Assembly (NCBI GenBank): GCA_037130865.1 | Contig: JBAXSG010000001.1 | Span: 41,429-105,428 of the forward strand | Reading direction: 5' to 3' | Origin: Candidatus Tayloriibacteriota bacterium | GTDB lineage: Bacteria; Patescibacteriota; Minisyncoccia; Phycocordibacterales; PALSA-1337 | Length of the DNA stretch: 64,000 nucleotides | Shown: positions 1,510 through 4,836 of the stretch, in pieces | Position numbering within the stretch: position 1 is the first letter of the stretch | How the letters are laid out: the number at the start of each line of letters is the position of its first letter | The notes under the pieces: model-generated | Database searches by the model: none | What the model was told of the DNA's origin: nothing | The model's input: only the letters and a program-made list of their open reading frames with translations | Position numbers and translations under genes: made by a program

Positions 1510-2148
1510 TCACCGCCGTGCTTTTACGGGTTTTACGGATTCTGCTAGATAAGCCTGAACCATTAAAGCAAAACCACGCTCAATGACGAACTTGTAGCCG
1601 GGGCGATCGTAGGACGCATCTACCCACCGACCACCATCGGCACAGCCAACACGGAGAAAGAACGGGTTGCCTCTGGAATCCTTGACTGAGTCACACATGA
1701 CAACAATCCAATCCAGACCCATCTCCTTAAAGTCCTCATCCGAGAGCGTCTCACGGATTTGGAACAATATTTCAATGTTCGTCTCCAGTGCTTTTCCATA
1801 CTTCAGTCCGCGCTTGTCACCTTCGGCTTGAATGTTCTTGAAGGTGCGGTTACCGTCTTCGAACAGCACCCCTTTCAGCACCGCGATTTCGCGGATGACA
1901 CCAGTCGTCGGCGGCATAACCAGCTTACTGAAAACTTTAGTGGCTGATTTGCTAAAGCGGAAACCCTGATCCATAAGACGCTCTTTCCACTCTGGATATG
2001 TTGTACCGTTAGTGGCAGGAAGTTGGATATAAATTACACCATCAACTTCACGCCAACGCTTTACATGCTCTTTTGCAGCCATGATGATGGCCTTTCTCCG
2101 ACCAGTGGTCGGGATTGTCCTTATACATACGTGATAAGGATTGTTCAA
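1510..2148 (-). CDS. hypothetical protein on an elevated-GC segment, upstream neighbour of the DGR
   Basis: 212-aa ORF with no recognisable motifs. Local GC is visibly higher than the flanking pgk. Start is uncertain (an alternative Met at about 2082). Confidence 0.4.
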   Translation of the reverse strand: MNNPYHVCIRTIPTTGRRKAIIMAAKEHVKRWREVDGVIYIQLPATNGTTYPEWKERLMDQGFRFSKSATKVFSKLVMPPTTGVIREIAVLKGVLFEDGNRTFKNIQAEGDKRGLKYGKALETNIEILFQIRETLSDEDFKEMGLDWIVVMCDSVKDSRGNPFFLRVGCADGGRWVDASYDRPGYKFVIERGFALMVQAYLAESVKPVKARR

Positions 2149-2190: not shown

Positions 2191-3273
2191 TCAATGACAT
2201 GAATTCGTCCACAACATTTGAGACTTTCCTGGTAATTGATTATATAACCTTATTTGTTGGCCTAGTTTATAACTATTTCCATGCGAAAGCATACCTAGAT
2301 AAGAGTTAAGCGTGGCCTCATATTTTTCGCTCTTTTCACTATCACCTTCACTATCTATAACTGCCTTTTTAGCCAACAAGTTTCTAAACATCCTCTTCTT
2401 GGTGGTTGTGCGTAAGACGCGATATTTAGGAAAATGAACCCAGCCAAGAAAATCTATACCGGAAGAAACAGTCTCTATCGATACTTTATCGGGATGAAGA
2501 TCCAGTCGCAATTCGCTCTGCAAAAAATCGCGAACTTTCGGGAGAAGACCGGCCAAAACACCTCGGTCATCATGCATAACCAAAAAATCATCGGCGTAGC
2601 GGATGTAATATCTCTGTTTCAGTTCATGTTTAATAAATTGATCCAATTCGTTTAAGTAAATATTTACCAGAAGTTGCGATGTAAGATTCCCAAGTGGCAG
2701 ACCTTTACCAAAACCGCCGGCACCACCAACAGCACCAACGACCTTACCACTAGAAAAACTGGAGATTATTTTCCAAAGCAACCCGAGAGTCGCATCATCC
2801 ACGGTATGCCTTCGTAAAACCCTCATCAAAACTTCATGATCAATAGAAGCGAAGCACTTGCGCACATCACATTTCAAGACCCAACAAGTTCGCCTGTGAT
2901 TTTTCGAAACTTTGCGTGCAAATTGTCTGAAACGATTTAGTGCTTTGTGAGTTCCTTTGAAATCTCTGCATGAATAAGAGTCAAAGATGAATCTCTTATC
3001 AAAAATCGGATACAAAATTCTGTATATAGAGTGATGCAATAATCTGTCACGAACAGTGGCTTTATGTATTATCCTAGTCTTAGGATCATTTATGATAAAA
3101 CTTTCATATAATCCGTGCGCATAGTTGCCATATAACAAATCTCTATATAAATCCGATATATTGCTAGACAGCTTTATTGTAAATTCAGCCACATCGTCTT
3201 TGCGGTTTTTGTCCACCACAAATTCCCGCCAGGCCTTGCATAAATTTTGAAAAGATATAATATCCTCGTACAT
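2191..3273 (-). CDS. diversity-generating retroelement (DGR) reverse transcriptase
   Basis: 360 aa. RT motifs are present: IINDPKTRIIHKATVRDRLLHHSIY (motifs 1/2), GLPLGNLTSQLLVNIYLNELD (motif 4 with the DGR-specific xGNLTSQ signature in place of group-II QGxxxSP) and YIRYADDFLVM (YADD catalytic motif 5). Size and N-terminus (ISFQNLCKAWREF) are typical of DGR RTs. Confidence 0.9.
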   Translation of the reverse strand: MYEDIISFQNLCKAWREFVVDKNRKDDVAEFTIKLSSNISDLYRDLLYGNYAHGLYESFIINDPKTRIIHKATVRDRLLHHSIYRILYPIFDKRFIFDSYSCRDFKGTHKALNRFRQFARKVSKNHRRTCWVLKCDVRKCFASIDHEVLMRVLRRHTVDDATLGLLWKIISSFSSGKVVGAVGGAGGFGKGLPLGNLTSQLLVNIYLNELDQFIKHELKQRYYIRYADDFLVMHDDRGVLAGLLPKVRDFLQSELRLDLHPDKVSIETVSSGIDFLGWVHFPKYRVLRTTTKKRMFRNLLAKKAVIDSEGDSEKSEKYEATLNSYLGMLSHGNSYKLGQQIRLYNQLPGKSQMLWTNSCH

Positions 3274-3332
3274 ATGAATTTAACTCAAAATCAAAATCTT
3301 TCTCATAGTACCCCCCCCGCAAAACGCCACAA

Positions 3333-3698
3333 GTGCTTTTGAAAGAGAAAGTGGTATACCGATCGTGGATATCGCTTCATAGGAATTTTCCGCGAATAGA
3401 AAGATTGGGTATTGGCCAAAAGATAGAGGCCTCTTTTCTGGATATTCTCGAATATACTTTCGTAGCAATGTATCTGGCATCTGACCAGAAAATTCTGATG
3501 CTCAGTAAAACCATAGCCAAACTAGATAAATTGAAATTTTTCATGCAAATAGCGTGGGAAAATAAACTCATACCAGAAGAAAAATATGCCCAGATATCGC
3601 TGGATCTTGAAGAGATTGGCCGCCAACTCGGCGGTTGGAGAAAGGGGTTGCAAACATCCGACCCAACGAAAACTCCCACCACAGGACAAGCCGCGTAG
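3333..3698 (+). CDS. avd: DGR accessory variability determinant (Avd-like four-helix bundle, 23S rRNA-IVS protein family)
   Basis: 121 aa from a GTG start. FPRIERLGIGQKIEASFLDILEYTFVA ... LEEIGRQLGGWRKGLQ aligns along its length with Bordetella phage bAvd (IPRKHGVAREMFLKCLLGQVELFIVA ... IAEVGRILGSWIARVNRKGQ). It lies between the RT and the TR but on the opposite strand. Confidence 0.72.
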   Translation: MLLKEKVVYRSWISLHRNFPRIERLGIGQKIEASFLDILEYTFVAMYLASDQKILMLSKTIAKLDKLKFFMQIAWENKLIPEEKYAQISLDLEEIGRQLGGWRKGLQTSDPTKTPTTGQAA

Positions 3699-3712
3699 TA
3701 GGAGAAATGGTA

Positions 3713-3830
3713 AGTTTCGGAACCACGATGCGATTCCTGTTCTCGGCGTTCCACACATTGTCGTTCAAGAAGCGGTTCACGTTCACCTTGGGAGCTCCAT
3801 CGGAGTCCAGATTCACGTTCGCGACGAAGA
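3713..3830 (-). repeat. DGR template repeat (TR)
   Basis: 118-nt segment homologous to 4163-4280. The conceptual translation VNLDSDGAPKVNVNRFLNDNVWNAENRNRIVVPKLT is rich in AAC/AAT codons. Every TR/VR difference falls on a minus-strand adenine of the TR. Confidence 0.85.
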
Positions 3831-4146: not shown

Positions 4147-4836
4147 CTAAGACTCGAGGGTCAGTTGCGGAACCACGATGCGACTCCTGCCCTCGGCGTA
4201 CCACACAATGCCGCACAAGAAGCGGTACACGTGCACCTTGGGAGCCCCATCGGAGTCCAGATCCACGCGCGCGACGAAGAGTTCACCATTGGCTTCGAAT
4301 AGGAAGAGCGTCCAGAAGTCTGTGCTGAGCCACTTGTGGTGGTTCTTCACAAACTGGATGATCTGAGGCTGTGGGAGGCACAGCTTTTTCGAATCCTCCG
4401 ACAAACTATCGAAGATTTTTTGATAGTTGCCGTTCTTGATGAGTTCATGAACAGCAACGTTCGTTTCCTTCGTCGGTTCGCTCTTCACATCGCAACCCCA
4501 GTTCTTGAAGTCGCAGTCGATGCCCCAGGTGAAAACTTTCTCTGCCCGAGCAATAGTCTCCTTGCCATCGGTTGGTTTGAGCGTGATGGTTTCCGCGCCC
4601 GAGATGAGCTTAAGGCAACCGCTCACGTTCTCGGTGATTTCTGCAAGCTTCTTCTTCACCGCTTCCATGACCACGGTTTTGAGTTCATTGCCGCGCTCCA
4701 CGAGTTTCTGAATGTTGTCACCGTTGATGACATCATTCTTTTCGAGGTCTTGGATCGCCTCCTCGGTGGCTTTACGAGCTGCCGATGTTGCGACTGTTAC
4801 GACTTGTTCTTTCTGACCAGATGTAATCGGTTTCAT
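4147..4836 (-). CDS. DGR target (variable) protein with a C-terminal VR-encoded ligand-binding segment
   Basis: 229 aa. The C-terminus ...FVARVDLDSDGAPKVHVYRFLCGIVWYAEGRSRIVVPQLTLES* is the diversified copy of the TR-encoded peptide (N->R/D/H/Y/C/I/Y/G/S, D->G, K->Q). There is no obvious N-terminal signal peptide. A ribosome-binding site AAAGGA lies 9 nt upstream of the ATG. Confidence 0.8.
   Translation of the reverse strand: MKPITSGQKEQVVTVATSAARKATEEAIQDLEKNDVINGDNIQKLVERGNELKTVVMEAVKKKLAEITENVSGCLKLISGAETITLKPTDGKETIARAEKVFTWGIDCDFKNWGCDVKSEPTKETNVAVHELIKNGNYQKIFDSLSEDSKKLCLPQPQIIQFVKNHHKWLSTDFWTLFLFEANGELFVARVDLDSDGAPKVHVYRFLCGIVWYAEGRSRIVVPQLTLES
4163..4280 (-). repeat. DGR variable repeat (VR) inside the 3-prime end of the target gene
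   Basis: Offset exactly 450 nt from the TR. There are 15 mismatches to the TR within 3731-3820 versus 4181-4270, all plus-strand T in the TR changed to C/A/G in the VR (adenine-specific on the coding strand). The 3-prime flank (4150-4170) is GC-rich and shows non-adenine mismatches to the TR (IMH versus IMH*-like). Confidence 0.85.

Follow-up and report, generated by a model that had tools for sequence, protein, structure and literature searches.

A conserved poly-C tract as a putative contingency switch on the avd gene of diversity-generating retroelements in Candidate Phyla Radiation bacteria

How a bacterium may use a gene whose start codon and body lie in different reading frames is the question raised by the avd gene of a diversity-generating retroelement (DGR) found in a 64,000-nucleotide (nt) stretch of DNA, referred to below as the window, from Candidatus Tayloriibacteriota bacterium (GCA_037130865.1, contig JBAXSG010000001.1, positions 41,429-105,428, forward strand; GTDB lineage Bacteria; Patescibacteriota; Minisyncoccia; Phycocordibacterales; PALSA-1337). 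The organism belongs to the Candidate Phyla Radiation (CPR, Patescibacteria), and all window coordinates are counted from its first letter as position 1. The avd gene stands head to head with the gene of the DGR reverse transcriptase (RT), and a run of eight cytosines (C8) in its 5′ leader puts its start codon out of frame with the body of the Avd protein. The reading that we favour, with moderate confidence, is that this poly-C tract acts as a slipped-strand contingency switch on Avd, and thus on DGR mutagenesis, and that the window carries it in the OFF position, one C short.

The avd frame break and its poly-C tract

In the window, the start codon of the RT gene (CAT 3271-3273 as read on the plus strand) directly abuts a plus-strand ATG at 3274-3276, such that the two divergent starts form the hexamer CATATG, as an earlier note on this DNA had observed. 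Translation from this ATG gives MNLTQNQNLSHSTPPAKRHKCF and ends at TGA 3340-3342. The frame of avd itself is closed upstream by TAG 3306-3308, and the first canonical start codon within it is GTG 3333; the candidates for a downstream start in the window are this GTG, TTG 3339 and GTG 3351, with no others. Between the two starts lies the C8 tract, which occupies codons 13-15 of the ATG-3274 open reading frame (ORF), the four-helix-bundle body beginning at about codon 3330-3333. The earlier note had held that C8 at 3311-3318 places ATG 3274 one nucleotide out of the avd frame and that C9 would fuse it to a 141-residue Avd. Both points stand, the former from the stop at TGA 3340-3342 and the latter from the computed addition of one C, which joins ATG 3274 to the avd frame and gives 141 amino acids (aa). 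The junction peptide of full-length Avd across the tract is HSTPPRKTPQVLLK, which from C8 needs a change of frame. In other words, the window avd is in a 'one C too few' state. The tract is the sole C or G run of at least 7 nt in the window, whose GC content is 41.9% and in which some 0.2 C runs of at least 8 nt would be expected under independent bases.

The break is reproducible. Five further assemblies of the window strain (L001-L005; two ENA assemblies, two Logan run assemblies and one from JGI, representing four read sets or assemblers) are 100% identical to the window across 3-9 kb of sequence, and each of them reads C8, which brings the count to six of six assemblies with the window included. 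Because of the frame break, gene calls at avd are inconsistent among them, the gene being called at 76 aa in L002 and at 97 aa in L004, and left uncalled in L001, L003 and L005. An in-frame version of the window Avd is absent from a collection of 5.8 billion protein sequences, where the best match is 92% identical, and thus no direct ON variant of the window strain was found. This best match (P0001) begins MNLTQNHPHSTPPRKTPQVLLKEK (MNLTQN...) from the same CATATG; its locus, L006, has 94% nt identity to the window and carries C9, in frame. Since L006 is in frame from the same CATATG, and since relatives that lack the tract are in frame from an upstream ATG, the ATG-3274 frame is, on this comparison, taken to be the authentic 5′ end of avd. 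In another relative, L007 (P0002, 86% aa identity), CATATG is followed by C8 and the frame fails just as in the window, the codon equivalent to 3333 being GTA, not a start. The hexamer CATATG is present in 16 of 124 related loci. The assertion of the earlier note that avd, as assembled, must start at GTG 3333 finds no support in this comparison: the equivalent codon in relatives is GTN or ATN, downstream starts are not enriched (see below), and the comparison with orthologs that the note had proposed yielded no GTG- or TTG-initiated short Avd with a normal spacer.

The leader that carries the tract is predicted to encode a disordered tail. In an AlphaFold model of Avd (pLDDT 87), helices span residues 20-36, 41-65, 70-96 and 102-129, preceded by a coil (residues 1-19) whose pLDDT is ca 50-68. 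This model speaks against the previous suggestion that the extra N-terminus extends helix 1 as in bAvd, since the extension is modelled as a tail and helix 1 is confined to 20-36. A sequence search of the PDB with the family profile gave no significant match and a fold search was used instead, in which Foldseek aligned the model to the Bordetella phage Avd structures 4dwl and 8ub7 with target-normalised TM scores of 0.8-0.9 (0.83-0.89). The Pfam bAvd and NCBIfam Avd profiles and the 4dwl alignments cover the bundle alone, residues ~19-129, such that a product begun at GTG 3333 would hold the complete bundle. In longer Avd homologs, helix 1 is preceded by the N-terminal motif (T/S)PP(R)(E)(A/L)P(K/Q)V.

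What becomes evident from relatives is that the tract is a trait of the family. An alignment of 71 Avd homologs, which occur in Paceibacterota, Moranbacteria, Zambryskibacteria, Taylorbacteria and other CPR lineages, was the basis for fetching 160 loci from species-representative genomes and metagenomes; these were anchored on the codon equivalent to V21, and 142 distinct upstream sequences were counted. An uninterrupted run of C7 to C13 stands at the homologous site in 124 of the 142 (C7 in 4 loci, C8 in 13, C9 in 32, C10 in 51, C11 in 16, C12 in 7 and C13 in 1), typically ending 14 nt before the V21-equivalent codon, and is spread across more than 100 species of several CPR lineages. In the long ORFs that flank these same loci, CCC is the least used proline codon (18%) and only 4 of 106 Pro-Pro pairs are written CCCCCC, and just two other C or G runs of at least 8 nt occur in 545 kb of flanks. 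For these reasons the tract is held to be conserved at the nucleotide level and not for its coding of proline. Relatives without a tract have TP, SP or unrelated residues at its position. A C or G run of at least 7 nt near the 5′ end was found in none of 32 distant phage-borne avd homologs (26-41% identity); phage-borne relatives were also considered as the source of the tract and set aside, only distant homologs having been found and none with a tract.

In three tract-poor loci (L017, L019 and L145) the corresponding part of the avd leader holds a (CA)n repeat: ~10 CA units ca 40-75 nt upstream of the avd match in L145 (match 101-484), and 4-5 units ca 15-30 nt upstream of the V21-equivalent codon in L017 and L019. 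The presence of a different slippery repeat at the homologous site suggests selection for mutability as such.

With regard to frame, a locus was counted as in frame if any ATG no more than 75 nt upstream, open to the tract, was in frame with avd, a criterion that is liberal towards 'in frame'. Even so defined, 37 of 115 tract-bearing loci are in frame, 43 have one C too many and 35 one C too few, a distribution that is indistinguishable from uniform (chi-square p = 0.64; binomial against one third, p = 0.84). Among loci without a tract, 12-13 of 13 are in frame from an upstream ATG, the sole exceptions being two with interrupted tracts (C4TC6 and C5AC4), which are out of frame. The avd ORF is of full length (107-140 codons) in all 82 out-of-frame loci, which rules out the reading of these genes as pseudogenes. 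Compensating downstream start codons were looked for as well and rejected: an ATG, GTG or TTG between the tract and codon 27 is present in 39% of out-of-frame loci as against 51% of in-frame loci. With the bodies intact and the start not moved elsewhere, it is at the tract that the two frames must be joined.

Variation around the tract in related contigs

Tract length is polymorphic in all six clusters of contigs whose flanks are at least 95% identical. One near-identical cluster holds C8, C9, C10, C10, C11, C11 and C11; L124 and L116 have no mismatch over 3,343 bp besides C10 against C11; L118 and L136 differ by one substitution over 1,654 bp, plus C9 against C11; and L168 and L169 (C9, in frame) are 99.4-99.8% identical to L008 (C8, out of frame). 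From these comparisons the tract appears to mutate faster than the sequence around it.

The same kind of comparison bears on the activity of the retroelement, as read from the variable repeat (VR) of the target gene. Between L169 and L168, 20 of 23 substitutions fall inside the VR (VR 2196-2317), as do 18 of 26 between L120 and L025 and 16 of 33 between L089 and L095; in the P0029 lineage (L202-L211) there are two VR alleles with 15 differing positions (VR 3377-3486). Such a concentration of differences in the VR between near-identical contigs from different samples is direct evidence of recent DGR activity in the family. Lineages in which the VR varies include L168/L169 (C9) and L202-L211 (C10), which have an in-frame ATG upstream of the tract. 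In the window strain (C8) the VR is identical in all six assemblies, and it is also identical in the pair L116/L124, both tract states of which are out of frame. The invariant VR of these out-of-frame strains fits a silent OFF state, the comparison being anecdotal and its numbers far too small for a test.

Differences are also seen elsewhere in these loci. Otherwise identical contigs differ by small groups of 4-9 substitutions beyond the VR, within avd and at the 3′ end of RT (1438-1471 in L202; 645-732 and 2580-2647 in L089; 2728-2761 in L120); these could be recombination patches, strain mixtures in the assemblies or off-target mutagenesis. In otherwise identical Moranbacteria contigs, L036 (at ~2515) and L142/L147 (at ~2475-2513), a 37-nt segment directly upstream of the C tract differs, replacing the avd leader and the RT start region (MTGFSKIPPPP... 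as against MNPPPP...), and the tracts are C11 and C12.

Directly next to the tract, a 9-10 bp inverted repeat abuts its 3′ end in ~45% of relatives (for example L011, L020, L023, L035 and L044). Pairing within this hairpin amounts to 78.9% in relatives as against 71% in shuffles, none of 500 shuffles reaching as high, and double-sided changes number 49 where 20 are expected from shuffles; the compensatory pairs include GAGAATTAC/GTAATTCTC, GAGGATTAC/GTAATCCTC, GAGAAGCAC/GTGCTTCTC and GAGGATTGC/GCAATCCTC. In the window, the fold of 3305-3350 has a free energy of -3.7 kcal/mol on the plus strand and -10.1 kcal/mol on the minus strand (z ~ -1 for both), and its stem is weak (plus strand z = -1.0) and begins 1 nt after the tract, whereas the covarying stem of relatives abuts it. 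As a guide to the strand on which the hairpin acts, wobble pairs were counted: 35 are G·T/T·G and 20 are A·C/C·A, and the fully paired stems number 23 for the one strand and 24 for the other. No correlation was found between the hairpin and the frame state. Possible roles for it are those of a frameshift stimulator, an enhancer of DNA slippage, or an RNA element of the RT strand extended by G·U pairs with the antisense of KEK codons.

On the RT strand, the window has a mini-ORF 4 nt after the G run (3306..3280, minus strand; ATG AGA AAG ATT TTG ATT TTG AGT TAA, MRKILILS*), which shares the frame of RT, stops 6 nt short of the RT ATG and is likewise found in L006 and L007. A subclade that includes L033, L050 and L060 also has an ATG at 4 nt from the G run, and there the frame leads into RT without a stop. 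The mini-ORF or upstream ATG may represent a coupling ORF, or else another start for RT served by the G run as ribosome-binding site.

A proposed slipped-strand switch and its rivals

In the mechanism that we favour, avd would start at ATG 3274 and be interrupted after 12 codons by the hypermutable tract, the length of which would be altered by slipped-strand mispairing during DNA replication, presumably at a high rate within populations. Each change of length would move ATG 3274 into or out of frame with the four-helix-bundle body: at C8, translation would end at TGA 3340 and leave the cell in a heritable, reversible state in which Avd is OFF or strongly reduced, and at C9 the 141-aa protein would be restored. 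It is established for the Bordetella phage system that Avd is needed with RT for mutagenic retrohoming (summarised in PMC5758913), such that a switch at the tract would control the DGR; in effect, the tract would choose stochastically which cells run it. That OFF frames lower Avd and DGR activity is to be expected from the frame break. Two features by which contingency loci are recognised are present, namely an uninterrupted homopolymer of at least ~7-8 nt in the 5′ part of an ORF (here C8 at codons 13-15), and a length that varies between close genomes with conserved flanks, with both frames represented. 

Several observations weigh against such a switch, and the rival explanations take their force from them. 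The support comes from comparison of assemblies, from which we infer heterogeneity within populations and reversibility. Sequencing errors also alter homopolymer length, and coverage is low for some of the compared contigs, such that single low-coverage pairs are weak taken alone. The earlier note had left the choice between a sequencing or assembly indel and a slippage-prone tract that phase-varies Avd. The former alternative, by which the true sequence would be C9 and avd an ordinary intact gene, fits the classical site of indel errors, and the assemblies come from related samples of one site, but it is now very improbable: C8 recurs in all six assemblies from different pipelines and runs (MEGAHIT k141 contigs, Logan, JGI), the 5.8 billion proteins include no in-frame version, and two thirds of the 115 related loci being out of frame would imply an implausible error rate. 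Taken together, the six C8 assemblies, the uniform frames and the near-identical pairs mean that sequencing error is not the general explanation, and of the two alternatives the phase-varying tract fits far better. The consensus length is stable within lineages (C8 in six of six for the window strain, C10 in 10 of 10 for L202-L211), from which it follows that switching is not extremely fast. A further difficulty is that GTG 3333 could yield a complete bundle in the window locus. Avd would on this account begin there, at TTG 3339 or at GTG 3351, and be functional as a short protein with a dispensable N-terminal tail, in keeping with a helix 1 that begins at residue 20 of the model and with profiles and bAvd structures that cover the bundle alone. 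We regard this as distinctly improbable, however, as no purine-rich ribosome-binding sequence precedes GTG 3333, 61% of out-of-frame relatives have no ATG, GTG or TTG between tract and codon 27 with no enrichment over in-frame loci, tract-less relatives use the upstream ATG, and a P-x-V motif upstream of helix 1 is conserved.

The principal rival is recoding, possible if on balance doubtful, whereby Avd would be made from any tract length by slippage of the ribosome or of RNA polymerase, aided in many relatives by the adjacent hairpin, tract length would tune a low level of Avd, and OFF would be leaky. The uniform frame distribution, together with intact avd ORFs, is equally expected if recoding makes the frame irrelevant, and a hairpin directly 3′ of the tract in ~45% of relatives, with its covariation, resembles a frameshift stimulator more than a replication-slippage switch. 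Bases 3312-3318 of the window read C_CCC_CCC, a perfect X_XXY_YYZ heptamer in the phase of ATG 3274, from which a -1 slip enters the avd frame at CGC 3318-3320. CCC_N sites are prone to +1 slips, and C10-type loci offer CCC_C sites for these. A precedent for a repeat switch whose OFF state is made leaky by frameshift suppression comes from a gene of Mycoplasma bovis, as assayed in E. coli (bioRxiv 10.64898/2026.04.01.715767). Yet known programmed frameshifts keep one direction, and the slippery heptamer of the window is not accompanied by a common offset among orthologs, in which offsets of 0, +1 and -1 are equally frequent. In the window 1 nt separates heptamer from stem, where 5-9 nt are usual; more than half of all loci, the window (z ~ -1) among them, have a weak hairpin or none, and the hairpin bears no relation to frame state. 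Slippage in transcription is documented mainly for A/T runs, and where it is programmed it has a conserved out-of-frame state at a long A/T run of at least 9 nt; here the tract is of C and a third of orthologs are in frame. Moreover, the length changes in the DNA are real, so expression must change with them unless recoding is both frame-blind and efficient. Recoding could also add to the contingency switch. Such a two-layer device of tract and, in many relatives, abutting hairpin, in which replication slippage would set the heritable frame and frame-agnostic slippage of ribosome or RNA polymerase, in either direction, would leak a small fixed fraction of Avd, is in our estimation rather unlikely. 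Selection may, lastly, act on the other strand: the G run, sometimes with the hairpin preceding it, would serve in cis the 5′ region of RT or the RNA of the DGR, as a promoter spacer, a ribosome-binding-like element, or a site of structure, processing or pausing, and the scrambling of the avd frame would be collateral. The run lies 13-56 nt upstream of the RT start on that strand, is followed by a TAnnAT-like hexamer (TACTAT 3310..3305) that is weakly conserved in the family logo, can pair with the U-rich antisense of KEK codons to lengthen the hairpin, and in the subclade described above precedes an in-frame ATG by 4 nt. This account is nevertheless improbable. As a spacer of an RT promoter the tract found no support and is kept as a minor rival only, the promoter scan having no match at the tract and the weak TAnnAT of the logo no consensus at the -35 position; as a Shine-Dalgarno sequence for RT in general it was rejected because the spacing up to the RT start varies too much and generally exceeds what such a role allows (mostly 16-22 nt), the 4-nt spacing to an ATG being confined to the subclade. 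The wobble-pair comparison (35 against 20) assigns the hairpin to no strand, and the consequence for the avd frame persists and would still need explaining.

The contingency switch that we favour has well-known counterparts. Homopolymer contingency loci occur in Neisseria, Haemophilus and Helicobacter, and in the bvgS and fim C tracts of Bordetella pertussis. The polyG/C tracts of Campylobacter jejuni are the classical examples (PMC4965091), and like them the avd tract is an uninterrupted G/C run of ~8-13 nt near the 5′ end of an ORF in an AT-rich genome (PMC4965091), its lengths are not limited to multiples of three, ON and OFF states are both found among relatives, and the ORF downstream is intact. 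Unlike them, avd is the accessory gene of a targeted hypermutator retroelement and not a surface antigen or restriction-modification gene, its tract stands at one homologous site in more than 100 species of several CPR lineages and not in one pathogen species, and the case for switching within its populations is drawn from assemblies. The (AG)n repeat of Mycoplasma bovis mod1 is likewise a frame-shifting repeat of a small-genome bacterium with a possibly leaky OFF state (bioRxiv 10.64898/2026.04.01.715767); it differs in being a dinucleotide repeat of a restriction-modification gene that was tested experimentally, leakiness at avd being argued by analogy. The -1 frameshift cassettes of dnaX and insertion sequence (IS) elements share with the window an in-phase heptamer (3312-3318) followed by an inverted repeat, which covaries in relatives, but in avd orthologs the shift that is needed varies, the spacer is 0-1 nt, and over half of the loci, the window among them, have a weak hairpin or lack it altogether. 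Compared with the DGR of Bordetella phage BPP-1 (mtd-avd-TR-brt, TR being the template repeat), the window has in common an RT with DGR motifs, adenine-specific TR/VR mismatches and an Avd four-helix bundle; it is unlike it in that avd, placed between TR and RT, runs on the opposite strand with its start directly against that of RT, and in that Avd begins with a proline-rich tail of ~19 residues which bAvd lacks and in whose coding sequence the C tract lies.

The restraint of DGR mutagenesis is an open question, in which uncontrolled adenine mutagenesis of the target gene is costly and for which we know of no general regulator. If the switch operates as proposed, a very large group of DGRs would gate a targeted hypermutator by a stochastic heritable switch, in other words by bet-hedging on evolvability, and the tract would, as far as the searched literature shows, be the first contingency locus described in CPR/Patescibacteria. 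In the two-layer case, CPR cells would never fully lose the DGR and rare lineages alone would run it at full rate, by means of a recoding site without a fixed genomic frame that is conserved across a large part of the CPR. A literature search, whose coverage was without Paul et al. 2017 (Nat Microbiol), gave no paper tying avd or DGR control to homopolymers, phase variation or frameshifting, nor any description of phase-variable genes in the CPR. Both DGRs and contingency loci built on homopolymers are well known; a hypermutable tract, conserved across many CPR lineages, that gates a targeted hypermutator would, within that literature, be new. CPR elements made up 126 of 372 DGRs in a 2017 survey, and 90% of them had the TR-(avd)-RT architecture (PMC5758913). 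In about two thirds of the family loci, automated gene calling overlooks avd or assigns it a wrong start, and DGR surveys that require an intact avd may consequently under-count or misclassify CPR DGRs. Many database entries for Avd of this family begin at internal codons (for example P0002, P0021 and P0033).

The retroelement and its neighbours

The window locus is a complete DGR of the CPR type, the features of which are collected in Table 1. Its gene order is target gene with VR, TR, avd on the opposite strand, and RT, which corresponds to the TR-(avd)-RT architecture termed 'B3' (as defined in PMC5758913), and the C tract and the VR are ~1 kb apart. TR and VR align over 124 nt with 17 mismatches, of which 16 are at a plus-strand T, equivalent to a template A on the RT strand. 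As read from its translation, LGNLTSQ in RT fits the I/LGxxxSQ motif of DGR-type enzymes; NCBIfam is without a DGR-specific RT model, and the best RT match there is to a group II RT, below threshold. The RT protein is identical on 9 public contigs, five of which are the L001-L005 compared above; the window strain is contained in the runs SRR7053533 and SRR7053536, in the reads of JGI 3300021349, and in ERZ27299977 and ERZ27300010. The match of the plus-strand ORF to Pfam bAvd scores 48.5 bits, above the 40-bit cut-off, and that to NCBIfam DivGenRetAVD 59 bits (E = 3e-16), below the trusted cut-off of 80 bits.

Table 1. Window coordinates of the DGR and of the elements around the avd start
Feature	Coordinates	Strand	Evidence
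DGR reverse transcriptase (RT) gene, 360 aa	2191..3273	-	Pfam RVT_1 E = 3e-27; LGNLTSQ and YADD motifs
CATATG, back-to-back start codons of divergent RT (-) and avd (+)	3271..3276	.	sequence; in-frame use by ortholog L006
avd 5′ leader frame: ATG, 12 codons, C tract, end at TGA 3340-3342; OFF product 22 aa	3274..3342	+	translation
avd main frame, open after TAG 3306-3308, stop at 3696-3698	3309..3698	+	Pfam bAvd E = 1.4e-12; NCBIfam DivGenRetAVD E = 3e-16
C8 homopolymer, proposed hypermutable tract	3311..3318	+	sequence; C8 in 6/6 assemblies
Imperfect inverted repeat directly 3′ of C tract	3320..3341	+	fold of 3305-3350; family covariation
DGR template repeat (TR), read on RT strand	3707..3830	-	TR/VR alignment
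DGR target gene, 229 aa, without confident domain	4147..4836	-	ORF; sole Pfam match sub-threshold
Variable repeat (VR), 3′ end of target gene	4157..4280	-	TR/VR alignment

Directly downstream of RT lies a conserved ORF (1510-2148, minus strand, 190-212 aa), which also adjoins RT in L006 (2-583). Neither Pfam nor NCBIfam gave a match to it, and the ORF read as 1510-2082 does not resemble the target protein; its position next to RT in both loci makes it a possible DGR-associated gene. A perfect TATAAT stands at 3256-3261, within RT codons 5-6 and 12 nt upstream of the avd ATG, for which the promoter scan gave no -35 element. It may double as the -10 box of a nearly leaderless avd mRNA; the surrounding GATAT(A/G)ATAT is kept in relatives, where it codes for D-I-I-S at the N-terminus of RT.

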